Assembly (NCBI GenBank): GCA_021823625.1
Contig: JAKANS010000002.1
Location: forward strand, 7,575-71,574
Direction: 5' to 3'
Length of the DNA: 64,000 nucleotides
Origin: a bacterium
Lineage (GTDB): Bacteria > Verrucomicrobiota > Verrucomicrobiia > Limisphaerales > J093
Both the position numbers and the translations under genes were made by a program. How positions within the stretch are numbered: the first letter of the stretch is position 1; each line of letters opens with the position of its first letter. Below are positions 3,107 to 23,992 of this stretch, one piece after another. Below the pieces are notes generated by a model. It was not told the origin of the DNA. It searched no databases and saw only the letters and a program-made list of their open reading frames with translations.

Positions 3107-6100
3107 TCAAGGCGAGGTCACCGCCCGGTAGAACTTGGTGGGAGTGCCGGCATCGAGCGGTACGGTGAACACCATCGTGCCACCGGTGTTGAGTTGCGAG
3201 GCAACCGGCGACCAAGTCACCAGGTCCGCGCTATCCTGCAAGGTGTAGGTCAAGCCGGTCTTGCCGGTGACCCAGATTTGCAGCCCGTCCGGAACACTGA
3301 CCAAGGTCAGATGCGCCGCCGGGTCGGTCGGATCGGGCACGTCAGCCGGCACGTAGATGTTGTCGATGAACATCGCGTCCAGGCCCGCGGAGAAGTTGTT
3401 GTCCTTCACGTAGCGCCAGGTCAGCGTGTGCGTGCCCGCGCCGAGGCTGAACAGGTAGGTGCGCCAGGCCACCTCGCCGCTCCAGCGCTCGATGCGCAGG
3501 CCGTCCACGTAAAACTCGGCGAAGTCCCAATTGGCCTCCGAACTGACCCGGACGTCGAACGCCGCGGAGCCGCCGCGCGAATTGACCTGGAGTTGCAGGC
3601 TGGTGTCCTGGCCATCGCCAATGCTGCCCGAGCGCACCGCGAACTTGCCGGCGCTGGCCACGGACGACTGCAACTGCCACGGCCGGCTGGAATTGTTGAC
3701 CCAAGGCGGGGCTTGGAGGTTCGCCGCGGTGAACGGCGGCTCGAAGGTGTAAGTGTAAGCCGTCGGAGCGAACTGCGCGGTGAGCACGTAGTCCTTGTCC
3801 ATCACCAAGACCAACGGATTCGCGGTGGAATTGACCGTGCCCTGCCAGCCCGTGAAGGCGAATCCCCGTTCGGGCAAGGCCGTGACCGTCTGGGTGGAAC
3901 CCACCGGGTACGAACCGGACGATGGGGTGACCGTGCCGCCCACCGGCGGCGTGATGTTGAGCGCGTAACTGTCCACGCGGTCGTCGTCCACGATGCTGAG
4001 CGTGGCGGTGTTCTGGAGCCCGAGAACGGCGCCACCTTGCGGATTCGTCAGGGAGAGCAGAACCGTGCGGTCCGACTGCGCAACGGCGTTGTCGATGATC
4101 GTCACCGGGAAGGTCAGCTCGCGCTCGCCGGGGTTGAACGTGAGCGTGCCGGTGGCGGACTCGTAATCCACGCCTGCGACACCGGTGCCGTCGGCGGTTG
4201 CGTAATCCACACTCACGAGCGTGTTGGTGGGGCCGGTGCGTCGGACGAGGATGTCGGCCTGGCCGCGGTTTTCGGGCACCGAATCGGTGGCGGAGCCGAA
4301 GGCCACCGCGCTTTGGCTGTCCTCGATGGTCAGCACCGCGCTGAGGCGCGCGGTCAACGAGTAACCGGGCGGCAGGTTGGTGAGTACCACGTTCACCGTC
4401 AGGTCGCCCCGCCCCTGATTATCGTTGAGGACCGGGATATCGAACGTCTTTTCCGTCTCGCCGGCCGCGAAGTTCAACGTGCCGTTGGTGGCGACATAAT
4501 TGACGCCCGCCGTCGCCGTGCCATCCGCGGTCATGAAACGCACCGTCGCCGGTAGCGTGAGATCGCCGGCGCGGGTCACCGCGAGGGTGGCCTGCCCGTC
4601 GAGTTCCGAAGCGCGGTACGCGGCGGAACTGAGCTGGAGGATGTTCAGGCGGAACTTCTCATCGCCGTGGATGCGGGCAATGCGGTTGCGCGGGAGCTTG
4701 TTCACCATCGTGAAATCGCCGCCGATGACCACCGCGCTGTCCGGTTGGACCAGCAGGGTGTACACGGTGTCGTTGGCGCCCGAGCCGATGTCAAACGTGC
4801 TGTCGAGCGTGCCATCCGGGTTGAGCCGGGCGAGGCGGTTGAGGTCCTGGCCATCGTACTGGGTGAAGGCACCGCCCAGCATCACCTTGCCATCGGCGGT
4901 CAGGCCCGCCGCGTAAACCGTCGCATTCGCGCCCGTTCCCGGATCGAAACCAGCATCGAGCGAACCGTCCGCGTTGAGCCGGGCCACGCCGTGCCGCGGG
5001 GCGCCGCCGGCCAGTTGCAGCGCGCCTGCGATGACCACGCGGCCGTCCGGTTGGAGGGCAATGGCATTGACGGTGTTGTCCAACGTCGGGCTGAAGCCGG
5101 CATCCAGCGTCCCATCGGCGTTGAGCCGCGCGAGGAATGGCCGGCTGGCGTTGCCGACGTTCCGGAATGCGCCGCCAACCAGAATCTTGCCGTCGCTCTG
5201 AACCGCCAGCGCATTCACGGCGCCATCGAAGGCGGGTGCAAAGGTCGGATCGACCGCGCCGGTGGACTGGAGTCGCGCCAGGCGCTGGTGGCGTTGTCCC
5301 TGCACGTTGTTGAAGTCGCCGCCCAGCAGGATCGTGCCGCCGGATTCGACCGCCACCGCCCGCACGGCCGCGTCGGCACCGGCGCCGACCTTGAAGTCCG
5401 GATCGACGCTGGCGTCCGCGTTCAGGCGGGCGATGCGGTTCAGCGTGTTGGTGCTGAACTTCGTGAATTGGCCACCCACGACGATGCGGCCGTCGGGTTG
5501 CAGCGCCACCGCGAGCACGTCGGCATCGAAGCCGCCGCCCGGGTTGAGGAACGTGTCGAGGTAGCCGTCGTCGTGGAGCCGGGCGATGTGGTTGAGCGAA
5601 ACCTCGTCCACGGCGGTGAACTTGCCGCCGAGCAGCACCTTGGCGTCGGCCTGGAACGCGACCGTCAGGACGGTGTCGTTCGCGCCGGTGCCGGGGTTGA
5701 ATTCGAAGTCCACACTCCCCGGCTTCTCGTTGTCGATGATGGTGACCGCTGCCGTGGTGTTGGTGCCGAGAGTGGCGGTGAGCGGCAAGCCCACGCCGCC
5801 CGCGGTGCGCGCATTCGTGAGGGCCACGGAGAACACCTGGTCGCCGTCGCCGATCGTGTTATCGAGAATGCGGATGTTGAACGACTGGTTCGTTTCACCC
5901 GGTTGCAGAACCAGCACGCCGGTCCCGTCTTGGGACCGGACAATCTGGTCGCCCGCGAAAGCCAGCGTGCCGCGGGCACCGATGTATTTCTTGCCGGAGG
6001 TGGCGGTGCCATCGACGGTGGCGAAATCCACCTGCACCGGCTGCACGGGGCTGCCGTCGCGCTGGACGGTCAGCGTGAGAATGCGCGCGTACTCGTCCAC

Positions 6101-9100
6101 CTGGTACGTACTCGCGGCGAACTGGAGCGAGCATTCGTCGTCGAGCACGAGCACCTGGCCATTGGTATTGGTGCCGTAAGTGGCGCTGGCATCCAGGTTG
6201 GTGAGCATCAGCGGCAGGGTCTTGTCGCCGTCAAACAACTCGTCGTCCAACAGCTTGACCTGGGCCACGGCCGTGGTCTGGCCCGGCGCGAAGATCACCG
6301 TGTAATTCGTCGCCGTGAAGTCGAGGCCGTCGATGGCCGTTCCGTTGGTGGTGGCGAGCACGTCCACCTGGAGCTGGTTCGTGACGATACCGTAGCGGCT
6401 GAGCGTGACCGGCGCGGTGGCGTCGCTTTCCAGGGCGCGCACAGTCGGCGCGAGCAACTCGACCACCGTGTCGTCGTCCAGGATGGTGAGTGTCGCGGTG
6501 GCCTGGCCGCCCAGCGGCACACCATCGCTCAAGTTGCGGAGCGTCAACAGCACAGTGCGGTCGGGCTGCACGATCCGATTGTCGTTCAGGCTGACGGAGA
6601 ACGTCTGCAACGTCTCGCCGGGCGCGAACGTCACCACGCCGTTGGTGGGAATGAAGTCGTTGGTGGTGGCGGTCCCGGCCACCGCTTGGAAGGCCACGCT
6701 CGCCGTGCCGTTGGTGTCGCTGGTCCGGCGGACGGTGATCTGGGCCTGACCGGCGCTTTCGTACACGGCGTAAATCAGCGATGAGAATTCGACGGCGCCG
6801 TCGTTGTCGATGAGGGTCACCGTGCCTTGCGCGTTGGTGCTGAGGAGGGCTCCTGGCGCGCCTATGAGGCTGAGCTGGACCGATTCCATGAACTCCTGGA
6901 TCGGATCGTCGATCGGGATCACCGGCACGGCCAGTGTGGCCTCGCCTTTGGGAATCACCAGTGTGTCGGGAATGGTCTCGTAGTCGCTGCCGTTGGCTGC
7001 GGTGCCGCTCACGGCCAGCTTGACGACCTGGTCCCGGTTGGTGGCGCCCACGCGACGGATCGTGAACAGACCTTGCTTGCGTCCTTGTTCCATCGCGATC
7101 GGGTCGGTGGTTTCCAGGCTCACGACGCTCGAATCGTTGTCCACGATCGTCAGCGTGTGCGACGGGTACACGTCGAACATTGCGTTCATCGGAACGGGCG
7201 TCACCGTCGTGTTGGTGACCAGGACGTTCGTCGTGCCGATCGTTTCGCCAGCGTCGTTGGTGAGCGTGATTTCGTTCGTGGTGACGATGTTACTGATCAG
7301 CGGAGCAGGTTCGACCAGCGTGAGCAACACCGTGCGGTCCGGCCGCGCGTTGGTGTCGTCGATCATCGGGAAGGCGAGGAGCTGGACGCGGTTGCTCACC
7401 GCCGGGTCGGGCACGTTGGTGAAGACCAGCCGGCCGGACGTGTTGGTGGCCGGGTAGTCGGTCCCCGGCACTGCCGTGCCACCGGTGACCTTCCAGTCCA
7501 CAGTGACATCCGTGTCTTGGGCGGGATTGGCGCTGACGGCGACCGCGACGAGGGCGGTCTTGACGCCCTCCGAGAAAGTGGAGTTCTGGAAAGTAAAGCC
7601 CACGCCCGGCAACGCCCCGCTGTCGTCGTCGGCGATCGTCACCGTGTCCTGCATGGGCGAGCCCACGTTGTAGTTGGTGCTCGGCAGGACTTCGCAGATC
7701 ACGGTCTCGTCGTCCTCGCGAACCTTGTCGTTCACCGGCGACACCCGGATCACGACGGACGTAGCACCGGCGGGGATGACACCGGCCGTGGTGATCGGCG
7801 CGTAATCCGCCACGGGCCGCGCCGTGCCCCCCACGGCGAGTTCCACCGTGAGTGCCTGGCGCGTATCGCCGACGCGGCTGAGCGTGAATTCGCCGACCGT
7901 GCTGGGCTCGGCAGCGTTCGCCGGGGTGGCACGCAAGGTCACCGTCGGCACCGCGCCATCCTGGATAAACACGGTGGCCACGCTCGGAGATCCCACGTTG
8001 TAGGTCGGGCTATCGGAAAGGATGATATCGACGCCATTGCCGCCGTCCCGAGCGCGGTTGTCCCGCGGTTGGATTACCAACGTGACGGACGGCTGGCCGG
8101 CCGGGATCGTGATCGTGCCCGACAAGGCCCGGTAGTCCTGGCCGTTGATCGCCGAGCCGCCGACCAGGTAATTGACGGTCAAGCTGCGGCTCAAATCGCC
8201 CGTGCGAGTAAACACCACCGATCCCGGGTCATTCCCGGTCTCGGAGGCGACCGAATCTTGGGCCAGGACCGTCAGCGTCGGCAGCACGTTGTCGCCGATG
8301 GTCAAGGTCGCCTTGGCGGTGCCCAGCGTGTACGTGGGATCGGCCAGCACCGAGACGGTGACGCTCTCATTGCCTTCCAAGTACAAGTCAGGCCGCACGT
8401 AAAGCGGCAACGGCACGGCGGTCACGCCAGCCGGGATCACCACGATGGACGGCAGCGGGGCATAGTCCGCGTCGTACGTGGCCGTTCCGCTGTAAGCCAG
8501 GCGGACGGTTACGGGCACGTCGGTTTTGCCGGACCGCAGCAGCATGAAGAGCGCGGAATCGCCGCCGTTCTCGCTCACGGCCTTGCTGATGGCCAGGATG
8601 GAAATGGTCGGTTGCGTCGGCGGGGTGATCTTGAAATTCATCTGCGCCTGGCCGGGCGTGCCCACCACGTAGTCGCCATAGGTCTGGAACCAGGTGTCGT
8701 TGCCGGTGGGCGCGAGCACCTCCCAGCCGGTCAGCCGCGTGTAGTTGGTGGCCAGGCCGTTGGTGGTGCCGCCGTTGCCGTCGTCCACGTTGGTCATGAA
8801 CACGGTTTCTCGCTGCAAGGCGTACATCACGGACGCAGAGAGATAATGCAGGTCGGTCTTGGGCGCGTTCGTGGACGGCGTGATGGTGATGTTGGTTTGG
8901 AACACGCCCGTCTGAAAATCCACGAAGCTGAAAGGAATCTTGAGCGTCACGGGCCCGAGCAAGGTGGTCAACGGGTTCGTGTGAACCGTCTGGTTCGTGT
9001 ACGCTTGGTAGTCGTTGGTGCTGACGGTGCCGCCGAGCGTGAACACGGCTCTGAGTTGCGTGTTCGTGTCGCCCGTCCGCATGAACGTGAAGATGCCCGG

Positions 9101-11686
9101 CGTTTGCTTCTCGAGGTCCACGTCCTTGGCGACCTGCACCGTCACACGCGGCTGTTCCTGCGCGAGAAACTCCAGTCCTTCGAGGTCGCGATCGGCCACG
9201 GTGACGATGGCGTTGAAGTTCAGCGGCGTGGTGAGGTAACCATGCAGGAACGCCGTGATCTCGTGGTCGCCGGAACTTTGGTTGATCAACGTGAAGCGGC
9301 CGTCGCTGTCCGTGAAGGTCGCCTGGAAGTCGTCGGCCAGGTCGGTGTTGTTGGTGAGCGCGCCGTTCGCCACGCGCACGCCCGCCACCGGCGCACCGCT
9401 GTTGTCGGTCACCACCCCGCTGATGCGGAAGCCGGTCGGCTCGCCCACGCGAACGACGACGTGCTTGCTCACCACCGCACCGCGCATGTCGCTGACCTCC
9501 ACCCGCACGCGGTAGTCGCCCGGTTGGATCCAGGTCTTCGTGAGCGTCGGACCGTTGGTACCGAACGACCCGTCACTGATGTCCCAATAATACGAGAGCG
9601 CGTCGCCGTCCGGATCCACGGCATCCACCGTGAACGTCACCGGCTTGTTGGTTACCACGGCCTCCGCACTGGCGGTCAAAGTGACGTCCGGCGGGAGGTT
9701 GCTCGTGAACGGACCGCGGTTGACGACGACATCGTAATAGGTCTCCGTCCCGGAACCACCGATGGCGACCGGCGTGATGGTGAGGTTCACCTCCGGGTCG
9801 GTGTAAGTGCGGCCGACGCAGATCGGCGAGTCGCTCTTGCCGTCCTTGGTGCCAGGCGTCGTGTCCAGCAACGTGCTGTAGCCGATGCCTTGCGGCCAGG
9901 CGCTCCATTGCAGCAAAACGCCGTTCGTGACCCAGTGGTTGTCCGTGATCTTGCTGCGGGCGCTCACCCAATATGTGCGCTGGTTGTCTTTGGGAATCTT
10001 CAGCGCGTAAAACCGGTTCGATGACATCACCGGCGTGTCGAAGGCATAAATACGGTTGGTCCGGTTTTCACTGTCAGAGTCGATGACCGAGTCCGGCAAC
10101 CAGCCGAGAATGTTCTTCCCGATGGCGTTGAAATGGCCGCTGAAGCCGCTGACCGTCTGGACATTCGTGCGCTGGGACTCGCCGCCGCCACTGCCCATCA
10201 CGTCGAACGGGTCGCCATATTCGATGTCGTCGCCGGCGCCGATAAGGCTGTCGTGGCCGATCACCGAATCCGTGTCCCACAAGTCGGGCGGCGGGTTCGG
10301 CAAGGGGGCGCGCCGGGTTTCCCAGTAATTGGCGTGGCCCAAACCGTAGCAATGGCCGATTTCATGGATGGCCAGGCCGGACCCGTTGTATTGGAGCCAG
10401 GCGTTCTTGCCGCCACCGAGACCGCCCCAGTTGAAGCCGGGCACGGGTGTGAACCGCGCCAGCAACAAATCGTAATTGCCCTGCAAGTAGCCTGCCTTCG
10501 CCGCTTCAGCCAGCGCGTCGGCCATGACGGCGCCCGGACCATCCTTCGAGTAGCGCGACTTGGGATTCGGCAACGTGAGCAGTGGCGTGACGGTGGTGAT
10601 GATCGCCGTCTTGTTGTACGACGCCTCCGTGTAAAACCGGCTCACTTCCTCCATCTCCGCCAGCGCTTGCGGCTCGCTGATAGGAATCGTGGTGTCGTCG
10701 CGGAAAATGATCCGCATGTAGAGTGCCTTGCGCACGCCCCAGGTGGGCAGCGGTGTGATCGGTGGCGGATTTGTCCAAACCGGCAACGCCGACGCCGCCA
10801 AAGCCGGCCGGTTCGCCAGCCCCATCAAAGCGCGACTCAAGGTTTTGGCGTGGGCATCCGAGCACACCGTGACGAGATTTCCCGCCACATCCACAACTTC
10901 TCCCGCCGAAGTCGCCCCACACACGGCACAGGCACCGGCCACCGAAGCCCCGCTGGCCGCGACCGCCTTCGCCTCGTCCCCATCGAGCACGCGAACCGGA
11001 TCCTCATCCACGGCCATTGCGTCGCCGACGGCGATGCCGTGCAAAGGCACATTCTTGAGCGACATTTGCATCGCCCGCAGCCCATAAACGTAAGCGCGAT
11101 AAGTGCGCCCCTTCAGGGTCACGTAACGGTAGGTCGGGGTCTTGAACAGCTTGTAGTCCGCTCCCGGCGCGGGCGAGGCTTCGTAAACGTCGAACTGGGC
11201 CAGGCCGCTCACGGTTTCTTCGAAATGGCGGGTGATGTTCGCCGGCAACACCTGACGCCAGCGATAAGGCACCGCGTGTTCCAAGGCCGCCCGTGGATTT
11301 TCCTCGATCTCCGCCGCCAGCTCGGCGCGTCGGGCTTGCGCCAACCGTTCGCCCTCGGCAATCAACGCCGCGGAATCACCGCCCCAAGCCTCGCTGAAAT
11401 AACGCTCCACCCAGCCCGCGAAAGCCGCGCGCGGCGAGGCGTAGGCGTGGCCGGGACTTGGTTCGCTGGCGGCCATCGTGCCGGCGGAAGTCGCTTGCGA
11501 CGCGGGAGCCGCCGTGCCGCCACCGCGCACAGCGGCATAAGAGAGCAGGCTGGTCTGCGGAGCGCTCGGGACAGCCACCGTCCGCGGCCGGGTCGGAAGA
11601 GGAATCGCCTTCTCACCGCGGGGCCAGAACGAAAGAAAAACGAAGAGGCTGGCCAACCCGGCCAAAGACCATTTAACAGCTTTCAT
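3107..11686 (-). CDS. giant exported multidomain metzincin-like protein (2859 aa)
   Basis: Single uninterrupted ORF. Domains seen by eye, N- to C-terminus:
- N-terminal hydrophobic anchor/signal (WSLAGLASLFVFLSFW).
- HExxHxxGxxH zinc motif (HEIGHCYGLGH, about nt 10335-10370).
- PKD-like segment (VTFTVDAVDPDGDALSYYWDISDGS).
- CarboxypepD_reg-like segment (FRISGVVTDNSGAPVAGVRV).
- Ten Calx-beta-like modules of about 95 aa, eight before and two after the propeller.
- Seven delta-60-type repeats of about 50 aa (LARLNADGSLDAGF..., about nt 4655-5725).
- InlB-B-type repeat (FAFTGWQG).
- Jelly-roll-like domain (VRVSSEANWDFAEFYVDG).
- About 70-aa C-terminal domain ending in KFYRAVTSP. Confidence 0.9.
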   Translation of the reverse strand: MKAVKWSLAGLASLFVFLSFWPRGEKAIPLPTRPRTVAVPSAPQTSLLSYAAVRGGGTAAPASQATSAGTMAASEPSPGHAYASPRAAFAGWVERYFSEAWGGDSAALIAEGERLAQARRAELAAEIEENPRAALEHAVPYRWRQVLPANITRHFEETVSGLAQFDVYEASPAPGADYKLFKTPTYRYVTLKGRTYRAYVYGLRAMQMSLKNVPLHGIAVGDAMAVDEDPVRVLDGDEAKAVAASGASVAGACAVCGATSAGEVVDVAGNLVTVCSDAHAKTLSRALMGLANRPALAASALPVWTNPPPITPLPTWGVRKALYMRIIFRDDTTIPISEPQALAEMEEVSRFYTEASYNKTAIITTVTPLLTLPNPKSRYSKDGPGAVMADALAEAAKAGYLQGNYDLLLARFTPVPGFNWGGLGGGKNAWLQYNGSGLAIHEIGHCYGLGHANYWETRRAPLPNPPPDLWDTDSVIGHDSLIGAGDDIEYGDPFDVMGSGGGESQRTNVQTVSGFSGHFNAIGKNILGWLPDSVIDSDSENRTNRIYAFDTPVMSSNRFYALKIPKDNQRTYWVSARSKITDNHWVTNGVLLQWSAWPQGIGYSTLLDTTPGTKDGKSDSPICVGRTYTDPEVNLTITPVAIGGSGTETYYDVVVNRGPFTSNLPPDVTLTASAEAVVTNKPVTFTVDAVDPDGDALSYYWDISDGSFGTNGPTLTKTWIQPGDYRVRVEVSDMRGAVVSKHVVVRVGEPTGFRISGVVTDNSGAPVAGVRVANGALTNNTDLADDFQATFTDSDGRFTLINQSSGDHEITAFLHGYLTTPLNFNAIVTVADRDLEGLEFLAQEQPRVTVQVAKDVDLEKQTPGIFTFMRTGDTNTQLRAVFTLGGTVSTNDYQAYTNQTVHTNPLTTLLGPVTLKIPFSFVDFQTGVFQTNITITPSTNAPKTDLHYLSASVMYALQRETVFMTNVDDGNGGTTNGLATNYTRLTGWEVLAPTGNDTWFQTYGDYVVGTPGQAQMNFKITPPTQPTISILAISKAVSENGGDSALFMLLRSGKTDVPVTVRLAYSGTATYDADYAPLPSIVVIPAGVTAVPLPLYVRPDLYLEGNESVTVSVLADPTYTLGTAKATLTIGDNVLPTLTVLAQDSVASETGNDPGSVVFTRTGDLSRSLTVNYLVGGSAINGQDYRALSGTITIPAGQPSVTLVIQPRDNRARDGGNGVDIILSDSPTYNVGSPSVATVFIQDGAVPTVTLRATPANAAEPSTVGEFTLSRVGDTRQALTVELAVGGTARPVADYAPITTAGVIPAGATSVVIRVSPVNDKVREDDETVICEVLPSTNYNVGSPMQDTVTIADDDSGALPGVGFTFQNSTFSEGVKTALVAVAVSANPAQDTDVTVDWKVTGGTAVPGTDYPATNTSGRLVFTNVPDPAVSNRVQLLAFPMIDDTNARPDRTVLLTLVEPAPLISNIVTTNEITLTNDAGETIGTTNVLVTNTTVTPVPMNAMFDVYPSHTLTIVDNDSSVVSLETTDPIAMEQGRKQGLFTIRRVGATNRDQVVKLAVSGTAANGSDYETIPDTLVIPKGEATLAVPVIPIDDPIQEFMESVQLSLIGAPGALLSTNAQGTVTLIDNDGAVEFSSLIYAVYESAGQAQITVRRTSDTNGTASVAFQAVAGTATTNDFIPTNGVVTFAPGETLQTFSVSLNDNRIVQPDRTVLLTLRNLSDGVPLGGQATATLTILDDDTVVELLAPTVRALESDATAPVTLSRYGIVTNQLQVDVLATTNGTAIDGLDFTATNYTVIFAPGQTTAVAQVKLLDDELFDGDKTLPLMLTNLDASATYGTNTNGQVLVLDDECSLQFAASTYQVDEYARILTLTVQRDGSPVQPVQVDFATVDGTATSGKKYIGARGTLAFAGDQIVRSQDGTGVLVLQPGETNQSFNIRILDNTIGDGDQVFSVALTNARTAGGVGLPLTATLGTNTTAAVTIIDNEKPGSVDFEFNPGTGANDTVLTVAFQADAKVLLGGKFTAVDEVSLNHIARLHDDGYLDTFLNPGGGFDADVLAVALQPDGRIVVGGQFTKFSTNTLNRIARLNADASVDPDFKVGAGADAAVRAVAVESGGTILLGGDFNNVQGQRHQRLARLQSTGAVDPTFAPAFDGAVNALAVQSDGKILVGGAFRNVGNASRPFLARLNADGTLDAGFSPTLDNTVNAIALQPDGRVVIAGALQLAGGAPRHGVARLNADGSLDAGFDPGTGANATVYAAGLTADGKVMLGGAFTQYDGQDLNRLARLNPDGTLDSTFDIGSGANDTVYTLLVQPDSAVVIGGDFTMVNKLPRNRIARIHGDEKFRLNILQLSSAAYRASELDGQATLAVTRAGDLTLPATVRFMTADGTATAGVNYVATNGTLNFAAGETEKTFDIPVLNDNQGRGDLTVNVVLTNLPPGYSLTARLSAVLTIEDSQSAVAFGSATDSVPENRGQADILVRRTGPTNTLVSVDYATADGTGVAGVDYESATGTLTFNPGERELTFPVTIIDNAVAQSDRTVLLSLTNPQGGAVLGLQNTATLSIVDDDRVDSYALNITPPVGGTVTPSSGSYPVGSTQTVTALPERGFAFTGWQGTVNSTANPLVLVMDKDYVLTAQFAPTAYTYTFEPPFTAANLQAPPWVNNSSRPWQLQSSVASAGKFAVRSGSIGDGQDTSLQLQVNSRGGSAAFDVRVSSEANWDFAEFYVDGLRIERWSGEVAWRTYLFSLGAGTHTLTWRYVKDNNFSAGLDAMFIDNIYVPADVPDPTDPAAHLTLVSVPDGLQIWVTGKTGLTYTLQDSADLVTWSPVASQLNTGGTMVFTVPLDAGTPTKFYRAVTSP

Positions 11687-11816
11687 GGCTTTTCAGGTGC
11701 ACCGACTTTAGGTGACAGGTACTTCGGTCGCAAGGGCATTCAAAACTGGTCGCGCAAACCTCGATAAACAGCAAATAACACGCCACGATTCCCGCATTTT
11801 CGGTCGCTCCTGTGGC

Positions 11817-12413
11817 TCACGGAACCACTCCCACCCCACGCAGAATGCGGGCGAGTTGCCCGGCCGTGTTGGCCAGTCCGCCTTCGGCCCAAATCACGTA
11901 GCGCGCCGCCGCGATTTTTCGTTCGATCGGCCACTGGGCACGGATGCGCTGCGTGATTTGCTCCTCCGACCAGCCACGCGCCCGCAAGCGCGCTTGCTGG
12001 CTCGCCGCCGTGCAGGCCACACAGATCGTGGCCGAAAACTGCCAGGCGGCGTCCGTCTCGAAAAGCAGCGGAATGACCACGCCGCCGGCCAGGCAACCGC
12101 GCTCCCGCCAGCGCGCCGCCTCGGCCAACCACGCCGCCCGAATGCGCGGATGCAAAATGGCCTCAAGCTCCCGGCGGCGGTTGTCGTCTGCAAACACGAT
12201 TCGGGCCAGTTCCTCGCGGCGCAGAACGCCTGCATCGTCCACGACGCCGTCGCCGAAGGCGCGTTGGATCTCCCGCAAAGCGGATTGGCCCGGCGCCACC
12301 AGTTCCCGCGCCAACGTGTCGGTGTCCGTGACTGGCAGACCAAGCTGCCGGAGACAATCCGCCGCCGCCGACTTGCCCATGCCGATGCCGCCCGTAAGTC
12401 CGAGGAGTTTCAT
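11817..12413 (-). CDS. coaE: dephospho-CoA kinase
   Basis: MKLLGLTGGIGMGKS P-loop at the N-terminus and ILHPRI, length about 198 aa. The ATG at 12413 is preferred over the TTG at 12425 used by the ORF track. Confidence 0.85.
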   Translation of the reverse strand: MKLLGLTGGIGMGKSAAADCLRQLGLPVTDTDTLARELVAPGQSALREIQRAFGDGVVDDAGVLRREELARIVFADDNRRRELEAILHPRIRAAWLAEAARWRERGCLAGGVVIPLLFETDAAWQFSATICVACTAASQQARLRARGWSEEQITQRIRAQWPIERKIAAARYVIWAEGGLANTAGQLARILRGVGVVP

Positions 12414-12494
12414 CGCGCGAGGCAAAGAGTGGTGGCGTGACGGACCGGCGGCAGCTGTTGCCCGCCACTGGCGAGAGCCCAGGCGTTGCCGTCT

Positions 12495-12533
12495 GCAAAA
12501 ACGAAGCCGCGCGGCGAGCGGCCACCGCGCGGC
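12495..12533 (-). terminator. intrinsic terminator downstream of the M36 protease gene
   Basis: 9-bp GC stem (12506-12514 gccgcgcgg paired with 12525-12533 ccgcgcggc) with a 10-nt loop. On the minus strand TTCGTTTTTG follows (plus-strand aaaaacgaa at 12497-12505). It lies about 40 nt after the stop at 12573. Confidence 0.65.
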
Positions 12534-12572
12534 GGAAAGGAGGACATGCTGCGAACCTCGGCGGACCCGCCC

Positions 12573-17102: not shown

Positions 17103-17120
17103 CGAATCACCTCTGCGGTT

Positions 17121-17167
17121 GAAAACTAACACACAGGCGCGCCGCGCACGAGGGCACGGACGCGCCC
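17121..17167 (-). terminator. hairpin plus T-rich tract between the 1008-aa gene and the M36 gene (possible terminator/attenuator)
   Basis: Stem 17136-17144 (ggcgcgccg) pairs with 17157-17166 (cgg-a-cgcgcc, one bulge). On the minus strand TGTGTGTTAGTTTTC follows. It sits about 28 nt after the stop at 17195 and just ahead of the M36 SD/ATG. Confidence 0.4.
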
Positions 17168-17194
17168 GTCAACTCTCCGGTTGGGAGCCGCCAA

Positions 17195-20100
17195 CTATGG
17201 GTCATAGCGGACCCGGTAATACCGCTGCCCGCCACCGGCCGGGCTGACCAAATTCGTTACCGTCAAAGTCTGGATCGTCGGCGCGGCGTTGGTGGCGGCG
17301 GCGAACACCGTCCACATCGGTGCCACGAGATTGGTGACGTACTCGACCGCGTACCCGGTCTGGGCGGCCGCCCGCCAAGACAACTGGGTCGTGTACGGAT
17401 CCGTGCTGAGGATCTTGAAATCGGTGATCAGCACGTCGTCGAACGGATATTGGTCGTAGCCGTTGGCCAGCCCGTCGCCATCCGAGTCAATGGTCTTGCT
17501 GTCCACCAAACCGACGTTTACATGCAGGGTCTTGCCGTTGCGCAAAGCCACATCCACGCCACTCGCCGGTCCAGCATAATCTTTCACCCAGTGCAACTGG
17601 CCGCCGAACAGGCCGTCGATTTCCTCTTCGCCCAGGTTGGAGGCGGCAAAGTAGATGTTCAGCCCCGGTTCGATCACGATATAGGCCGCGGGATCCAAAG
17701 CCACGCTGTTCGTAGCAAACTCGAGGTAATCCACATACAGCGCGTAGTTGCCGGGCAGCGGGGTGCCCATGCCGTCCGTGGGCGGTCCGAAACGCAGTTC
17801 CCCGTTCGGCAGACTGTCCAGCACGAGCCGGCCGATCGCCGCGTTGTCCTTGAAACCGTCTTTGCGCGCGCCGCGGTCCGCCGCGGCCCAAGTATGGGAC
17901 ACGCTGGTAAACTGGGGGGCGCGAGTGCGGAAGGTGGTGCCCAGCAGGTCACCGTAAGCGGGTTTGCGCAGCAGGCTGAAACCGTCGGACAACTCGATCA
18001 AATTGTTGGCCCCCGCCCCCACGTCGCTAAAGCTGTTCGTGACATTGATGAAGAAGCCCCGGCTGGCAACGACGTGGGTGTTCCGCAGTTTGTAATCGTT
18101 GCCATAATAGTGGACCGCTCCGCTGGCGTTTTCGTAAGCGCTATCCAGGACCGCCGTGTTCGCGAACACTCGCAGGTCGTTGTTGTTTTGGATGGTCCCG
18201 GAATCTTGGAAGAAGTCGCACGCGATTTCGTGCGCGCCCGCCCGGAGCGTCCCGGTGTTGACCATTTGCAGTAGTTGCTGGCCGGCCGGATAATCGCCCC
18301 CGTAGTAAGCGACGTTCGGGATGTTGATCGTTCCGTTGTTGGTCATGTACCGCAACCCCGGCGTCAGGTCGCCCGTCCAGTTCACCAGCGGCCCGCCCAG
18401 CGAGAAGTTGCTGTTCACGGTCAAGCTCTCAGCCGCAATGTCCATTTTGCTGCTCACCAGAAAAGGATCGTCGATCACCACGTTCGTACTCGCCAGAGCG
18501 AGCGTGTGGGTAACCACCTGTTGGGTCCTTGTGAGCAAATCGGCGCTGAGCACAAGACAGTAGATGCTGACATCCACCGGGTTGGTAACGGGGTTGAAAT
18601 AATTCGTGTTGGCGTCGATGAACCAGTTCGACAGCACCAAGGCAAACTGGTTCGACCACACGCCACTCCAGGCGTAGATGTTGCCATTAACGGCGTGCGT
18701 CGAGTCCTTCGACAGGCTCTGGATGGTCAGCAGACCGTTGGTGGAAGCCATGTCGTAAATGAGATTCGGAACATCGATCTTCGCGCCGGCGCTGTTCTTC
18801 AGGTGCTTGGCCTTGATACTCACCGTGCTCATGCCCCGGATGCGGGTGTTACTCAAGTCAACGGTGTCGCCCGCAATCTCGATCCGCCCGCTCGTGTTGG
18901 TCACATCGACGCCCGGCACCGGCGGCGGACGGTTTTCGAGATTGTCGATGAAGCCCCCGTAACCGGCGTACAAGTTGGTCGCATACACGTTGGAGAAGCT
19001 CAAATCGTAAAGGAACGAGTTGAAAATCGGACTATTACCGTTGGCACCGATGGCAAACTCGAACGGCTGCTCCCGGTAGATCCGATAGGCGTAAGGCCGC
19101 ATCGTCGGCACCCAAACCAACAGATTCGTCAAGGACAGCGTGTTGGTATTGTATCCCAAGTAATCCACGAAGTAGATGGCACTGGTTTCAGCCGAAGCCG
19201 TGATGACGTTGGTCGTTTGGGAGGCAATCTCGACCGCCACGGTGCCCATACCCATTCCGGCCGGACCGGGAGGGCCGAATTTGGTCCGAACCGTGAAATT
19301 GGTGTCGCCCACCCCCACAAGGACCGCCTGGCGATAAATATTGGTGGGCATGATCAGGTTCGAGATCGACCCATCGAAGTTAGTCAGGGTCAACCCAGTA
19401 AAGCCCACGACGCCGGTGTTGCCAAACGAGGTGTTATACTCGGGTGGAATGAAAGTGCTGACACCGGTCAGGAACCATCCGAACTTGTTCGTCACCGCAT
19501 GGAATGGGGAGTTGACCAGGAAGCCCCCGCTCTGCGGTCGCAGAATCGCCGCCGTGTTGATGGGACCGAAAATCGGCGGCGGATCCTGTACGCCGGAACC
19601 CCAGTAAAGGTCGAACATCGCGCTGTCGGGGTAGAAAGAGTCCGGTACGTTGTCCCGATCGACATCGAATATCGCGTTGGCGAAGCCGAACGAGGTTAGC
19701 GGCTGCACTTCCAAGCTGCCGCGAGACAAATTCACGTTTTGACCGGTGATCGAGAGGATGCCGGCGTTCCCCACGCCGATATAGCCCGAACTGGCTACGT
19801 TCGTGGCCGAGATCAGCAGCATCGTCTGGCTATAGGCGCCTGGTCCCCAATAGTCCGGAAGCACGTAATACTCCAGTGCGGCGACCCGGCCGGAATTGTC
19901 GTTGACGAAATTGGCCGACGGGCGATGGAAACCGTTGTCGTCGATGTAGTCGAATCGAAAGCCCGGCACACCGATCATGGCGCCGCGGTTCGTGTAGTAC
20001 CGCGTATTCGTGAAATCGTACGGCAGCGTCATCGTGAAATCGTACGGCAACGGCGTGAACGCCTGGAACGTGCCCAGATTGACAAACGCCGTGGCGTCGA

Positions 20101-20221
20101 TTTGCGGCGGGTTGGTGACGATGGTGCCCGAGTTGATGTAAATGGGCAGGGTACTCGAGCCGGCGCGCACGAGCACCGGCAGCACTGCTGCCCCCGCCAG
20201 GAATGTCAAAAGCCGCTTCAT
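17195..20221 (-). CDS. large secreted hypothetical protein (1008 aa), probably beta-helix/adhesin-like
   Basis: Signal peptide MKRLLTFLAGAAVLPVLVRAGS. N/T/G-rich, repeat-poor sequence. Asp-rich Ca-binding-type motif DSDGDGLANGYDQYPFDD. C-terminal domain ending in QRYYRVRYDP. No catalytic motif recognised. Confidence 0.75.
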   Translation of the reverse strand: MKRLLTFLAGAAVLPVLVRAGSSTLPIYINSGTIVTNPPQIDATAFVNLGTFQAFTPLPYDFTMTLPYDFTNTRYYTNRGAMIGVPGFRFDYIDDNGFHRPSANFVNDNSGRVAALEYYVLPDYWGPGAYSQTMLLISATNVASSGYIGVGNAGILSITGQNVNLSRGSLEVQPLTSFGFANAIFDVDRDNVPDSFYPDSAMFDLYWGSGVQDPPPIFGPINTAAILRPQSGGFLVNSPFHAVTNKFGWFLTGVSTFIPPEYNTSFGNTGVVGFTGLTLTNFDGSISNLIMPTNIYRQAVLVGVGDTNFTVRTKFGPPGPAGMGMGTVAVEIASQTTNVITASAETSAIYFVDYLGYNTNTLSLTNLLVWVPTMRPYAYRIYREQPFEFAIGANGNSPIFNSFLYDLSFSNVYATNLYAGYGGFIDNLENRPPPVPGVDVTNTSGRIEIAGDTVDLSNTRIRGMSTVSIKAKHLKNSAGAKIDVPNLIYDMASTNGLLTIQSLSKDSTHAVNGNIYAWSGVWSNQFALVLSNWFIDANTNYFNPVTNPVDVSIYCLVLSADLLTRTQQVVTHTLALASTNVVIDDPFLVSSKMDIAAESLTVNSNFSLGGPLVNWTGDLTPGLRYMTNNGTINIPNVAYYGGDYPAGQQLLQMVNTGTLRAGAHEIACDFFQDSGTIQNNNDLRVFANTAVLDSAYENASGAVHYYGNDYKLRNTHVVASRGFFINVTNSFSDVGAGANNLIELSDGFSLLRKPAYGDLLGTTFRTRAPQFTSVSHTWAAADRGARKDGFKDNAAIGRLVLDSLPNGELRFGPPTDGMGTPLPGNYALYVDYLEFATNSVALDPAAYIVIEPGLNIYFAASNLGEEEIDGLFGGQLHWVKDYAGPASGVDVALRNGKTLHVNVGLVDSKTIDSDGDGLANGYDQYPFDDVLITDFKILSTDPYTTQLSWRAAAQTGYAVEYVTNLVAPMWTVFAAATNAAPTIQTLTVTNLVSPAGGGQRYYRVRYDP

Positions 20222-20268
20222 AGCCGAATCAAAGTCGTTTCCGAGCCAACTCCTGGCTCAATCTGGGT

Positions 20269-21807
20269 TCACGGGGTTGTTCCACCTGTCCCGGTCGTGC
20301 TGGTTGTTCCGGTCGCTGTAACCGTGATGAACGGAGAAAGCCACGGGGTCTGGCTGCTGTCACTCATGCTCCCCGAGAGGACCAGGCGTTCCAAGTCTTG
20401 GATGCTTGCACCGAAAGGATAAATGACCGGCTCCGCCGTAGTCCCGTCATAAGTCCCCCAGAAGAAACCCGGGATACTATCGGCTTCTCCACCTTCGGGA
20501 ACGTTGATGAGAAACTGGCCCAACTTGCTGAAGGTGATCGTGACGGGGGGCTGTATCAGCCCGGGACCGGCCAACGTCTCGCTGCCGTTCTGCGCATCCA
20601 AGTTAACCAGCGGAATGGTCCGGCGGTACATGACCGGCGACGTGACCCCGATGCCGAGGTCCGCCGCGGTGAAAAGCACGTCCGGGGCCGTCAGCGTACG
20701 CTGCACGGTCTGACTACGCTGGGTGTAATTGGTGATGTACTTGTCCACGTACACGTTCGTCAGCGCCACCCAGCCGCCGACCAAGGAATCGTAGTTCACC
20801 CGCGCAAAGCTGACCTTGTCCACGCCCGAACGGAGTGCGACGTCGATCGCCGCCAGGTTGGTTCCCACCGCGTTGGTGAAACCGGAAGGAGCACCCCACG
20901 GGTTTGAGCTGCCGGATCCGGTGCTGCCCCCGATCAGGTAAGTGCCGCTTGCCGTCCCCGGCGACGCCTGCACCACGTTCGTGGCCAACGTTTCGACGTT
21001 GTAGTTGGAGGGCCGGTACAGGTAGCGCAACGCAGCCACGTCGTCGCGGGTCAGGCCGGTGAAGAACAGCCCAGGCGAGGTGTTGACCGTCCAGCCGGAG
21101 GCAAAGATTCCCACCGACAGCCCTATGAACGAGGACACGGAATTGACGCTCGGAACAGTAGGATCCACCTCGAACTCCACCGCTTCATACGTGGGCGTCG
21201 TAATCGTCTGGAGAATCTGATAGGTGTAAAGCACGGAGTTGACGTACGCGCTGGGTTGAAGCGAGAGCGGATCGAAGTTGCGTCTGATGACCGTGTAGAA
21301 AGGAATGTTGTTGATCACGACGCGCGATCGCAGCGTCCAGACGTACCGCTCTGCCGGCGCGGCCCCCATGACCTCCATCAGCGCGGCCATCGCGTACGAC
21401 CGCAGATCGTACAGGTACAGCGCCGTCGCCCGGTGGTTGAAGCGGCGGGTATCCAAGGGAAACTCAGACAGATCCGCGCTCATTTGTGAGGTTGCCGGCA
21501 GGTCGTTGAAGACCTTGATGGCCTTCTCCACCTCTTCCACGCCTTTCGCGCCAAAATAATTGAGGAACGATTCGTCGAACCCGTAGGTGATCAAAGGCAG
21601 GTTCCACCGGTATTCCTCCCCCAAGTTCATCGGCCCCCCCACGTCCGGTGGGAGGGTGTTGTTTCCAAGATCCAGCCCCCCGAGCTGGTAGCCGATTTCC
21701 GGCGTCATCCAGGTGTCGAACGCGCCCAGCAACGAGAACGCCTGGGCGCGGGGCAACGCGCCGGCGAGGGCGAGGACCAGCAGGATTCGAGCGAACAGAG
21801 CACGCAT
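20269..21807 (-). CDS. secreted hypothetical protein (512 aa)
   Basis: Signal peptide MRALFARILLVLALAGALPRAQA followed by FSLLGAFDTW. Thr/Gly-rich tail (TATGTTSTTGTGGTTP). The start lies 3 nt after the stop of the upstream 691-aa gene. No family recognised. Confidence 0.75.
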   Translation of the reverse strand: MRALFARILLVLALAGALPRAQAFSLLGAFDTWMTPEIGYQLGGLDLGNNTLPPDVGGPMNLGEEYRWNLPLITYGFDESFLNYFGAKGVEEVEKAIKVFNDLPATSQMSADLSEFPLDTRRFNHRATALYLYDLRSYAMAALMEVMGAAPAERYVWTLRSRVVINNIPFYTVIRRNFDPLSLQPSAYVNSVLYTYQILQTITTPTYEAVEFEVDPTVPSVNSVSSFIGLSVGIFASGWTVNTSPGLFFTGLTRDDVAALRYLYRPSNYNVETLATNVVQASPGTASGTYLIGGSTGSGSSNPWGAPSGFTNAVGTNLAAIDVALRSGVDKVSFARVNYDSLVGGWVALTNVYVDKYITNYTQRSQTVQRTLTAPDVLFTAADLGIGVTSPVMYRRTIPLVNLDAQNGSETLAGPGLIQPPVTITFSKLGQFLINVPEGGEADSIPGFFWGTYDGTTAEPVIYPFGASIQDLERLVLSGSMSDSSQTPWLSPFITVTATGTTSTTGTGGTTP

Positions 21808-21810
21808 AGG

Positions 21811-23742
21811 TTACCGGACGCGAATAACGCGATAGTAAGCGGTGGAGTTGGTGCCGGGAATGACGGAGGAAGCGACGCTCCCCGGAGCGAACGCAGGTCC
21901 CGCGGCATCCGACCAAGTTTTCAAATCGGTCGAGGATTGGAGTTGGTAGATGGAACCCGGCAGGGCGTTCCATTGGACCAGGAGACCGCCGGTCGTGGGC
22001 TTAATGCCGACCCGCAGGGCACTGTCCCCTTTCGTTGGGTCGGTTCCGGCCAGGAACTCAGCCAGGTTCGAGGCGCCATCGCCGTCGGAATCCACCGTTG
22101 GAATTGGCCAGGTCGAGCTGTCCGGCCCCCAATACAGCGTCTGCCAATCGTCGGGCAGGCCGTCGTGGTTGCGGTCGCGGCCCCAGGTCGTGCCGCTGGC
22201 CACGTCCGACAGCGGCGAAACGCGACCGCCCGTCAACTCATAGGCCAGCCGGAAGCTGTGCACCGTTGCGGGATCCAGATCGCTCAGAATGTAGAAATTG
22301 CTGGTCAGAGCCACCGGCGTCGCCGCTCCGTCCACGAAGAGACGGTAGCCCGCGAGGTCGGTGTAGCCGGCCAGCGGCGCCCAGCTCACCATCAACGAGT
22401 ACGAGTCCAGCGCGGACACGACCGGTGCGCTCGGCGCCGGCAGCACCTGTTCACCCGCAAACCGTTGGCCAAAAATCTCGAAACTCGCGTCCCCGCCGGC
22501 GAATCCGGCCCAAGCCACCAGGAACCGCCCGCTGCCATCCGCCGCCACCATGGGTTGGAGTTGCTGGCTGACGGTGGTGGTGTTGATGAGGAATTCGCCC
22601 CCCGCCGGACCGTCCGAGCTCAGCAAGCGCCCGTAAATGCCGTCGCGCGAGCCATCCTGCCAAAGACTGTCCCACACCACGAGCCGGGTGTCGCCCAGGG
22701 CGGCGAGCTGCGGCGAAAACTGATTGTTCGGCCGGTAGGTGTTGACCACGGCCGGGGCGCCGACCGGCTGCCCCGCGGTGTCGAAATTACCCACGACCAC
22801 GTCCCACATGTTGGTCAGGTCGGGGAGATAACGCTCGCTCCAGGCCGCCACGAAGCCGCCGTTCCAACCGCGGGCCAGCACCGGGTTGGCGCAGAGGTTG
22901 GTCGCGGTGTTGAGCCGGAACTCGTCGCCGAGCGGATTGCCGGAAGCGTCGAACCGCCGGGCGAAGACCTCCACGCTGTTTTCGTAGCTCTGCTGCTCGC
23001 TCACCCACGCCGCGACAAATGCGCCCCCATCGACCGGGGTCACGGCCGGATTCCGCTGGTTGAAACTGCTGAACTGGTTGATTTGAAATTCGCCGCCCAG
23101 CTTGTCGCCGTTCGGCGCGAGGCGCTGCCCAAAGACGCCCTGCATGCTGCCGTCCTGGCCGAAGCCGCTCCAGAGCACGACCAGGTTGCCGTCGGGCAGG
23201 AGTGCGATGGCCGGGTTGGCGCGCTGGTTGCCGGTGGCCGCGTTCAACCGCAGGTCGCCCGTCGTGAAAGTGCCTTCCGGGCCGATGACGCGAGCCCAAA
23301 TGTCCTGCGATCCCTGCTTGCCCCCCTGCCAAACGAAGACCGCCCCACCGTCCTTGAGCAATTGAACCTGCGGATTCTCCTGGTCATCGGCCGTGCTTTC
23401 GTTGACCCGGAACATCCGCGTGGGAATGGGTGAAAGCGAGCCGTTCAGCTTCGCAGCCCCGATGCCGAGACCCGCGCCGTCCACGGCGTTGTCCTGCCAG
23501 ACCGCGTAGCCGCCACTGGCGTCGAGGCTGAGGTGGGGATGCGTCTGGTCCCCTGGCATTCCGCGCGTGATCAGGTACTCGGTGCCTTGCGCCGCGGCCG
23601 TCAGGTCGGCCGCCGCCATGCTGCTCGTAGCGGCCATCCCGAGGGCCAAGGACAGCCGGACCGCCCGGCCAGCGTCACGCGCCCGGACCACGGCCGGGTT
23701 CGCCGACGCGCTTCGAGGGCGTCCACTCATTGTTCCGCTCAT
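21811..23742 (-). CDS. secreted repeat-propeller / FN3 protein (about 643 aa from the ATG at 23742)
   Basis: Six to seven repeats of about 55 aa (pattern EF.(I/V/L)N......Q..P.V....DG.FVV.W......DGS..G(I/V)FGQR(F/L)). An FN3-like segment follows (SYSLMVSWAPLAGYTDLAGYRLFVDG), then DxDxDG-type motifs (DRNHDGLPDD, DSDGDGASNLAEF) and a C-terminal domain ending in AYYRVIRVR. The ORF track starts at 23886. The ATG at 23742 places a Tat/Sec-like basic N-region before a hydrophobic stretch. Confidence 0.75.
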   Translation of the reverse strand: MSGTMSGRPRSASANPAVVRARDAGRAVRLSLALGMAATSSMAAADLTAAAQGTEYLITRGMPGDQTHPHLSLDASGGYAVWQDNAVDGAGLGIGAAKLNGSLSPIPTRMFRVNESTADDQENPQVQLLKDGGAVFVWQGGKQGSQDIWARVIGPEGTFTTGDLRLNAATGNQRANPAIALLPDGNLVVLWSGFGQDGSMQGVFGQRLAPNGDKLGGEFQINQFSSFNQRNPAVTPVDGGAFVAAWVSEQQSYENSVEVFARRFDASGNPLGDEFRLNTATNLCANPVLARGWNGGFVAAWSERYLPDLTNMWDVVVGNFDTAGQPVGAPAVVNTYRPNNQFSPQLAALGDTRLVVWDSLWQDGSRDGIYGRLLSSDGPAGGEFLINTTTVSQQLQPMVAADGSGRFLVAWAGFAGGDASFEIFGQRFAGEQVLPAPSAPVVSALDSYSLMVSWAPLAGYTDLAGYRLFVDGAATPVALTSNFYILSDLDPATVHSFRLAYELTGGRVSPLSDVASGTTWGRDRNHDGLPDDWQTLYWGPDSSTWPIPTVDSDGDGASNLAEFLAGTDPTKGDSALRVGIKPTTGGLLVQWNALPGSIYQLQSSTDLKTWSDAAGPAFAPGSVASSVIPGTNSTAYYRVIRVR

Positions 23743-23992
23743 GTAAGCTGTGTCCACAAGCTTTCGCACTTCGTTGGGCAAGCCCCGCCTTTGCGGTCGA
23801 CCTGCCCGGTCACGCTGCTTTTCTGAATACCGTGGCCGCGAGCACCACTTAGCAAGTCGCCTGCCACTCGACTGACCGAACGTCATCGCTCCGCCAGCCC
23901 TTCAAATCTCCCCAAACCGCAGAATCGAGGACCACCCCCGGCGGTTCCGGCAAGTTGGGGTCGGCCTTGGTCCCGAGCCGGCCCTCGAACGC

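Follow-up and report, generated by a model that had tools for sequence, protein, structure and literature searches.

Four of the five exported proteins encoded in one operon on the minus strand of a 64-kb verrucomicrobial window (assembly GCA_021823625.1, contig JAKANS010000002.1, positions 7,575 to 71,574; the window is this whole stretch of 64,000 nucleotides, with a G+C content of 64.1%) end in a copy of the same small domain, here called the RFYR module. This module constitutes a new domain family, absent from Pfam-A and NCBIfam, of the kind of small extracellular beta-sandwich modules with a preference for the C-terminus. With respect to its function, we tentatively propose a C-terminal surface-retention or binding module that would be kept on the mature protein, a reading to which we give a probability of about 0.4. 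The four copies in the window, with lengths in amino acids (aa) and E-values from a hidden Markov model (HMM) described below, are as follows.

3110-3319 (-): RFYR module of the 2859-aa protein (p2859), single copy, last 70 aa, ending ...KFYRAVTSP-stop; external-copy HMM E=3.7e-15; AlphaFold2 model
12576-12785 (-): RFYR module of the 1519-aa protein (p1519), last ~70 aa, ending ...RVYRGVAP-stop; external-copy HMM E=2.2e-14; AlphaFold2 model
17198-17434 (-): RFYR module of the 1008-aa protein (p1008), last ~79 aa with a longer loop, ending ...RYYRVRYDP-stop; external-copy HMM E=5.6e-11
21814-22023 (-): RFYR module of the 691-aa protein (p691), last 70 aa, ending ...AYYRVIRVR-stop; external-copy HMM E=2.2e-13

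Four tails of one domain family

An earlier note, made from the letters of the window, had aligned these four tails as one C-terminal domain, and the strings it quoted were found to be exact on the minus strand. Compared only among themselves, the four copies showed weak similarity (pairwise BLAST E of 0.006 or above), and leave-one-out HMMs recovered p691 (E=1.3e-3) and p1519 (E=0.014) and missed p2859 and p1008. These statistics are what favours the view that the tails are alike by chance, or as a compositional artefact of GC-rich coding sequence. Larger searches stand against it. A profile of the four copies run with hmmsearch returned 8230 matches at E<=1e-3 (278 of them reaching E<=1e-10) among 1.84 billion representative proteins, so that thousands of homologues exist. 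An external-copy HMM, made from 300 copies of other origin, none of which reached 40% identity to a window copy, was used to scan the six-frame translation of the window and picked out exactly the four tails, with E-values from 3.7e-15 to 5.6e-11 and a next best match at E=0.076. The tails are also conserved in orthologues and are modelled with confidence by AlphaFold2, which together leave a chance origin a vanishingly small probability. The four tails are genuine members of one domain family, and chance resemblance is excluded. That the 512-aa neighbour (p512) lacks the domain, as the note had stated, was confirmed both by its sequence and with the external-copy HMM.

At thresholds up to E=10, neither Pfam-A (2025 copy) nor NCBIfam 20.0 had a model that reached into the final 70 residues, and no description of the RFYR module was found in the searchable literature. 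A four-copy module protein compared with plasmids by tblastn gave no match. A tag of the PEP-CTERM/exosortase type was rejected, in agreement with the earlier note, as the tails have no PEP motif, transmembrane helix or basic cluster and no match in NCBIfam.

Position and copy number at the C-terminus

The position of the module was analyzed in 152 proteins, comprising the 150 best database matches and two fragments. With the external-copy HMM, the last copy ended no more than 3 aa from the protein end in 139 of the 152 and no more than 10 aa from it in 141. Between one and ten copies were present per carrier, with 2-10 in all but four of the proteins and usually in tandem arrays; the ranking of the 1.84-billion-protein search favours such multi-copy proteins. 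Word-based homologue searches, which returned 2, 24 and 13 matches as short fragments, were used as an independent sample of termini. In the set of 24, which is not ranked by summed score, a single copy stood 0-4 aa from the end in all 24. When stop-to-stop open reading frames (ORFs) of the fetched loci were searched, every match lay within 5 aa of the stop. The earlier note had suggested an HMM scan for strictly C-terminal placement, and this placement was borne out for the last copy in more than 90% of carriers, but internal copies, which the note had taken as speaking against a sorting role, were found as well.

The end itself was also constrained. Among 177 carrier termini (P0001-P0196) the stop followed 4-5 residues past FYR in 138 (78%), and the last residue was Pro in 98 (55%); at the corresponding position behind internal copies, 15% had Pro. 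A final Pro was present in three of the four window module proteins.

The terminal copy did not prove to be specially close to the four-copy profile, a candidate property that was rejected when it was found to be the best-scoring copy in 55 of 129 arrays (49 expected). Its nearest relative in another protein was itself terminal in 80 of 131 cases, against a baseline of 29%.

These figures bear on two alternatives to retention. In the first, the terminal module would be a secretion or recognition tag, that is, a structural signal read by an outer-membrane machine (a split Amuc_1098-type secretin with PilM/N/O-like partners, or a system similar to the type II secretion system, T2SS) and a functional analogue of the C-terminal domain (CTD) of the type IX secretion system (T9SS). 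The extreme C-terminal rule, the Pro specific to terminal copies and the excess of terminal-terminal relatives speak for such a tag, which we nevertheless hold to be improbable. Known secretion CTDs are single, but the RFYR module occurs in tandem and internally with the same core motif, which also speaks against a classical cleavable tag, and the similarity among terminal copies can arise because whole-protein architectures are homologous. In the second alternative, the module would be an ordinary extracellular structural or substrate-binding module, a lineage-specific spacer or polymer binder similar to fibronectin type III (Fn3) domains or carbohydrate-binding modules (CBMs), without a localisation role; its C-terminal bias would reflect the mode of array growth and the absence of another C-terminal anchor. 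This is unlikely, if still a serious candidate. Tandem arrays fit it, as does the alternation of modules with Ig_3 inside proteins that end in other domains, but it is not normal for spacers or CBMs to close more than 90% of the proteins that bear them, and the strong enrichment of the terminal Pro also counts against it.

Sequence and predicted fold

The module is 65-70 aa long, with the family consensus G-x2-Y-x-[IVL]-[QE]-A-S-[TS]-[DN]-L-x2-W-x2-[LIV]-x-T ... G-x3-F-x-D ... R-F-Y-R-[VAL], and the consensus for the protein end is R-F-Y-R-[VAL]-x3-4-P-COOH. In terminal copies the Trp was conserved in 99%, the last Arg in 98%, the Phe in 90% and the Tyr in 86%; further near-invariant polar positions were Q/E (87%) and D/N (91%). 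This degree of conservation of polar residues (with the Arg at 98%) exceeds the usual needs of a fold and weighs against a purely structural module.

AlphaFold2 modelling of the p2859 tail from a 55-sequence alignment gave six beta-strands with a mean predicted local distance difference test (pLDDT) score of 92.8 and a predicted template-modelling (pTM) score of 0.78. When the p1519 tail was modelled together with the domain preceding it, six strands were again obtained at pLDDT 83-90. An incomplete sandwich finished by donor-strand exchange was considered as well; the models of the module are confident, closed six-strand sandwiches. Foldseek against the PDB returned Tencon, the Fn3 domains of cytokine receptors and NCAM, and EMMPRIN, at TM scores of 0.54-0.67 and E-values of 0.06 or above, which are not significant. 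On these models the module is a compact Fn3/Ig-like beta-sandwich that falls in no curated family tested, and the Ig-like character given to it in the earlier note is upheld at the level of prediction. The generic fold is compatible with a structural role.

Fn3 domains (PF00041) were the best structural matches and share with the module a B-strand Trp, seen in some copies at profile position 18, and the Tyr-type pattern of the C and F strands. They differ in that the RFYR module has one strand fewer and is not matched by the Pfam fn3 model even at E<=10; the fn3 matches found in carriers are separate N-terminal domains. The best match in a profile search of the PDB was to the CBM32/discoidin modules of Paenibacillus glucanase/chitosanase (2rv9, 4zxe; E=1.3e-3, 53 profile positions). 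Proteins composed only of modules gave sub-threshold partial Pfam matches to F5_F8_type_C (model 64-88 of 127), F5_F8_type_C_2 and DUF3999; the partial discoidin-type matches covered model positions 64-88 of 127 and 45-86 of 91, with no single stretch above threshold. The core motif Y-x-[IV]-Q-x-S-x-D-x3-W may thus be said to resemble discoidin/CBM32 glycan-binding domains locally and below threshold, the shared motif being ...Y-x-I-Q-x-S-x-D-x3-W..., which would suit a substrate-binding module (PDB E=1.3e-3; F5_F8_type_C sub-threshold). However, the match spans ~25-55 residues of a domain of ~130 without any stretch passing threshold, and a six-strand sandwich is predicted for the module whereas the discoidin barrel has eight strands.

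PPC (PF04151) is a small C-terminal beta-sandwich of secreted proteases, present in one or two copies, that is thought to aid secretion or binding and is often removed later. The RFYR module resembles it in size, in fold class and in its C-terminal place on secreted proteases, but PF04151 did not match the four tails at E<=10, and in p1519 and some other carriers PPC-like domains are present as separate units nearer the N-terminus.

The jelly-roll domain and the place of the T9SS CTD

Directly ahead of the module, p2859 and p1519 each carry a jelly-roll domain.

3317-3739 (-): jelly-roll (CBM/MAM-like) domain of p2859, directly ahead of the module; 35-38% identity to the p1519 region
12768-13235 (-): jelly-roll (CBM/MAM-like) domain of p1519, directly ahead of the module; AlphaFold2, Foldseek

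Together with a Flg_new_2 domain this accounts for ~290 aa of shared sequence (35-38% identity) immediately ahead of the tail in the two proteins. The earlier description of the carriers as otherwise unrelated therefore fails for this pair, and all five exoprotein genes belong to one conserved operon. The p1519 jelly roll was matched by Foldseek to CBM22, CBM61, CBM4 and MAM domains; a module that comes after a CBM/MAM-like domain is in keeping with a structural or substrate-binding role.

The jelly roll also has homologues in other phyla (L028-L037). In Cloacimonadota and Bacteroidota they carry a T9SS CTD at the C-terminus, which follows the jelly roll directly in three proteins and after a stretch of ~120 aa in two L030 proteins, and which scores 37-55 bits on TIGR04183 (T9SS type A CTD; cut-off 23 bits). 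In the Verrucomicrobiota homologues the RFYR module occupies the place of the T9SS CTD. Among 13 jelly-roll homologues the module was at the C-terminus in 12, and the 13th looks frameshifted. Homologues from Poseidoniales archaea continue for ~920 residues after the domain. That the module takes the same position as T9SS CTDs after the same jelly roll is a reason to consider a tag.

Another comes from the peptidases. NCBIfam defines M36 subfamilies by their dependence on T9SS, myxosortase or rhombosortase, and p1519 is matched by them only in its catalytic part. This separation by sorting system, taken with the exchange of CTD for RFYR module, indicates that the M36 family habitually exchanges its C-terminal localisation device, and it counts in favour of a tag. 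M36 paralogues in other Verrucomicrobiota lineages (L007-L012) are 1200-4800 aa long and differ at their C-termini: the L009 protein ends ...MVNWGW, those of L010 and L011 finish with a domain that was not recognised, and that of L012 has a TSP3 repeat followed by a divergent module (...GARYYRIKAQP) missed by the HMM at E<=0.01.

Homology of the RFYR module to the T9SS CTD was rejected. With hhalign, five bona fide CTDs gave a probability of 0.4%, and in Pfam and NCBIfam the type A CTD models (TIGR04183/PF18962) did not match the tails at E<=10, which weighs against the tag reading. There are nevertheless likenesses: both are Ig-like beta-sandwiches (~70-90 aa for the CTD) that stand last in a wide variety of Sec-exported proteins, both follow the same jelly-roll domain, and T9SS-dependent M36 peptidases exist. 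In contrast to the CTD, the RFYR module has six strands rather than seven and is often found in tandem with equivalent internal copies, and there is no evidence for its cleavage, a PorU-like sortase or attachment to anionic lipopolysaccharide (A-LPS). A single C-terminal copy on Sec-exported cargo is true of the four window proteins and of every ORF match in the fetched Verrucomicrobiota loci, while the top database matches carry 2-10 tandem copies. No T9SS genes were present among the main ORFs of the 64-kb window; T9SS is not known outside the Fibrobacterota-Chlorobiota-Bacteroidota group.

The operon and its split secretin

The module genes form the distal part of a ten-gene operon (3107-30924 (-)), listed here from its head; TPR denotes tetratricopeptide repeat.

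29017-30924 (-): PilM-like (Amuc_1101-like) gene; Amuc_1101_fam 484.7 bits, pilM 147.8 bits
27925-29013 (-): Amuc_1100-like gene; Amuc_1100_fam E=8e-13, 48.5 bits
27119-27916 (-): gene of a 265-aa membrane protein (u265); synteny in L050
24611-27091 (-): secN, first of the two secretin ORFs, with the TPR region, the N-domains and the beginning of the secretin domain, ending at an in-frame TAA; Amuc_1098_fam
23993-24607 (-): secC, second of the two secretin ORFs, covering the C-terminal part of the secretin domain and bearing a signal peptide of its own; PF00263 E=1e-28, Amuc_1098_fam positions 646-804
21811-23886 (-): p691, gene of a 691-aa exported protein, first after the secretin; ORF, translation, Pfam, synteny
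20269-21807 (-): p512, gene of a 512-aa exported protein, operon member kept in relatives; ORF, translation, synteny
17195-20221 (-): p1008, gene of a 1008-aa exported protein, operon member kept in relatives; ORF, translation, synteny
12573-17132 (-): p1519, gene of a 1519-aa M36 fungalysin; Peptidase_M36 E=3e-112
3107-11686 (-): p2859, gene of a 2859-aa exoprotein; minus-strand ORF and translation, Pfam/NCBIfam

From their sequences and their synteny in L050 the PilM-like, Amuc_1100-like and u265 genes at the head of the operon probably encode a pilus- or T2SS-like inner-membrane subcomplex. The family scores were below the equivalog cut-offs (Amuc_1101_fam 484.7 of 650 bits, Amuc_1098_fam 250.2 plus 130.3 of 750, Amuc_1100_fam 48.5 of 180), and by sequence and gene order these neighbours are homologous and syntenic to the Amuc_1098-1102 system, below equivalog level. 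In Akkermansia the Amuc_1098-1102 proteins are abundant in the cell envelope and have been proposed to form pili-like structures by a mechanism that is unknown (PMC5332112, PMC4960237). The window operon shares with that cluster its gene families and their order (PilM-like Amuc_1101, Amuc_1100-like, TPR-secretin Amuc_1098), and differs from it in having a conserved set of five exoprotein genes after the secretin and the secretin itself in two ORFs; in Akkermansia, Amuc_1098 is made as one polypeptide of 907 aa (PMC4960237).

The operon order was kept in L001, L002, L004, L005, L047, L048, L050 and L051, with 50-90% protein identity, and in the conserved operon further module-bearing giant proteins follow the M36 gene. 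The secretin was encoded by two ORFs in every relative (L001 62-3190, L002 2-3139, L004 1-2015, L005 1-1469, L047-L052), and in L004, L005 and L052 secN and secC overlap in different frames. A secretin made of two polypeptides would be unusual. The first ORF ends in a G/T-rich tail and the second opens with a conserved signal peptide, MRIKALVLLGAAVLGLGGLAHAQ. Similar Thr/Gly-rich low-complexity tails end both secN (24611-24700 (-), ...GGGTTTTGTGTVGGGTTTGVGVVQ) and p512 (20269-20330 (-), ...TATGTTSTTGTGGTTP). A metagenome scan anchored on secC recovered seven loci, all of them close relatives.

With respect to the link to an envelope machine that the earlier note had proposed to check, the Amuc_1098-type secretin with its PilM/N/O-like genes does lie immediately upstream, but most other contexts of the module are without secretion genes. 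That four module genes come after a secretin in an operon conserved down to ~50% identity supports a tag; p512, which belongs to the same operon and has no module, is evidence against one.

The N-termini of all five exoproteins are signal-peptide-like in translation, that of p2859 being a signal/anchor sequence. The p2859 protein contains PKD, 11 Calx-beta, a delta-60/DUF5122 propeller, Flg_new_2, the jelly roll and the RFYR module, together with a zincin motif, HEIGHCYGLGH, at residues ~449-460 (window ~10300-10340 (-)) in a region with weak M66-type and M6-type matches in Pfam/NCBIfam. With the M36 protein, the operon therefore encodes two metalloproteases. The p1519 protein consists of an FTP propeptide, the M36 domain, Ig-like and PPC-like domains, Flg_new_2, the jelly roll and the RFYR module, and its true start is likely the ATG 30 nt downstream of the ORF start. 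In p691 a repeat- or propeller-like N-terminal part and weak fn3 and TSP3-like matches (Pfam/NCBIfam) precede the module, with a TSP3-like DSDGDG...GTDP motif (TSP3_bac E=8e-4) ahead of it. The p1008 and p512 proteins had no family matches in Pfam or NCBIfam, and p512 has a T/G-rich tail instead of the module.

Carriers, taxonomy and other genomic contexts

Carriers of the module were diverse in their other domains, which included GH9, cohesin, fn3, discoidin, Ig, DUF5122 propeller, PPC, LRR, cadherin-like, Calx-beta, LamG, S8 and M36, and many full-length carriers had clear signal peptides. As glycoside hydrolases and proteases are typical bearers of CBMs, their presence among the carriers fits a structural or substrate-binding module. 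Other window proteins with Sec signals (an RCC1-repeat protein, a PD40 propeller and an SGL lactonase) are without the module, which therefore marks a subset of exported proteins and is no general requirement for export.

Wherever the origin of a carrier could be established, it was Verrucomicrobiota (loci L001-L005, L010-L012 and P0190), and neighbouring genes placed P0054 in Verrucomicrobiota and P0023 in Pedosphaera sp. The carrier locus L008 bears the label Candidatus Acidoferrum, which may be a case of mis-binning. No matches to the module were found in 25 loci from Bacteroidota, Cloacimonadota or archaea.

In L045 (1-16837) and L055 (4646-17644), S8 proteases that are 2278-2547 aa long and carry 5-7 modules at the C-terminus are encoded directly after a cassette composed of GspF, several N-methyl pseudopilin genes and an unannotated protein of ~1250 aa. 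The UvrA encoded beside the L055 carrier clusters with a protein named Pedosphaera sp. This arrangement, in a family unrelated to the window proteins, again favours a tag, but pseudopilin cassettes are very common in Verrucomicrobiota, so that the adjacency may be due to chance. Five other carrier contexts had no secretion genes and mostly housekeeping surroundings. Module genes thus stood beside secretion genes in 2 of ~7 independent contexts, a proportion for which there is no known baseline rate, and that most other carriers lie away from secretion genes speaks against the tag.

A recurrent small architecture was formed by a signal peptide, a cohesin (Cohesin E down to 3e-12) and 2-3 RFYR modules. 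In two independent loci (L043/L044 and L056) these cohesin-module proteins adjoin giant proteins bearing Dockerin_1, which suggests a cohesin-dockerin surface assembly in bacteria of Verrucomicrobiota type. The cluster (L043 3921-11110; L044; L056 1-11182) is conserved; one of its Dockerin_1 giants has RHS repeats, and it also holds a TSP3/LVIVD/Big_7 protein and a protein similar to vanadium chloroperoxidase/PAP2. In cellulosomes, a cohesin protein with only a C-terminal repeat block is an anchoring scaffoldin, in which the block, made of surface-layer homology (SLH) modules, ties it to the cell surface, while primary scaffoldins bear a substrate-binding CBM instead. Because of the latter, the cohesin analogy supports a binding module more firmly than a cell anchor. 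The cohesin-module proteins have no catalytic part for a CBM to serve, which is a point against the structural reading.

Functional interpretation

In the retention reading, which we prefer, carriers are exported by Sec, as their N-terminal signal peptides show, and the steps beyond that are proposed. The module would stay folded at the free C-terminus, either singly or closing a tandem array, and would act as a non-catalytic localisation module that holds enzymes and adhesins at the cell surface. It would attach non-covalently to a component of the envelope, to a glycan or to a protein of the surface, with an avidity that scales with copy number, and the conserved C-terminal Pro might protect or define the exposed end. 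The module would not be a cleavable linear sorting signal, and no processing site was found. This reading is drawn from the near-absolute C-terminal position, the presence of 1-10 copies, the terminal Pro, the cohesin architecture, the place equivalent to that of the T9SS CTD and the discoidin-like motif; the binding role, the nature of the ligand and the retention of the domain on the mature protein are what we infer from them.

SLH triplets on anchoring scaffoldins hold proteins at the surface in this way in other bacteria. Anchoring scaffoldins (cohesin plus three SLH) resemble the present case in having repeated terminal modules whose copy number suggests avidity, and the order of signal peptide, cohesin and 2-3 modules beside dockerin proteins mirrors their architecture. 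The likeness is one of architecture only, as fold and sequence are unrelated, the RFYR hosts are diderm and there is no known ligand.

Several observations weigh against retention. The analysis yielded no ligand, no binding site and no dedicated partner for the module. In P0015 a LamG domain is followed by four modules alternating with Ig_3 and then by a C-terminal GDSL lipase, while P0013/P0047 and P0016 continue for 170-270 residues past the last copy; to judge from these architectures, in proteins of the P0015 kind the internal copies probably act as ordinary structural modules. In a rough comparison of tails with whole-protein identities, the identity of the tail among orthologues did not exceed that of the rest of the protein. 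The cohesin analogy would also suit a module that binds substrate, as CBM3 does in primary scaffoldins.

The sorting or secretion tag put forward in the earlier note gains from a C-terminal position in more than 90% of carriers, from their signal peptides and from the diversity of their domains, but loses by the internal and tandem copies and the scarcity of secretion genes nearby. A more specific version of it would make the module the cargo mark of a localisation pathway particular to Verrucomicrobiota, in which the folded terminal copy with its free ...FYR-x3-4-Pro end is recognised by, or tethers cargo to, a secretin-based outer-membrane machine. We regard this as a long shot, and just as speculative are the candidates for the machine, the two-gene Amuc_1098-type secretin with PilM/N/O-like partners or the pseudopilin cassettes. 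If true, the module would take the role of the T9SS CTD in a phylum that lacks this system, and exoprotein display would provide a function for the enigmatic clusters of Amuc_1098-1102 type.

Significance

Verrucomicrobiota are abundant in soil, freshwater and gut, and how they place giant enzymes and adhesins on or beyond the outer membrane is poorly understood. Should the RFYR module prove to be purely structural, a new domain family and improved annotation would be what is gained. A model of it is useful for this purpose as the tails lack annotation in Pfam and NCBIfam, and it could serve as a marker to predict the surface and secreted proteome from metagenomes. The module is a candidate determinant of surface retention or secretion, possibly linked to secretin clusters of Amuc_1098 type. 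With thousands of members, C-terminal placement and the position of a sorting domain, it therefore offers a concrete handle on the placement of exoproteins in Verrucomicrobiota.

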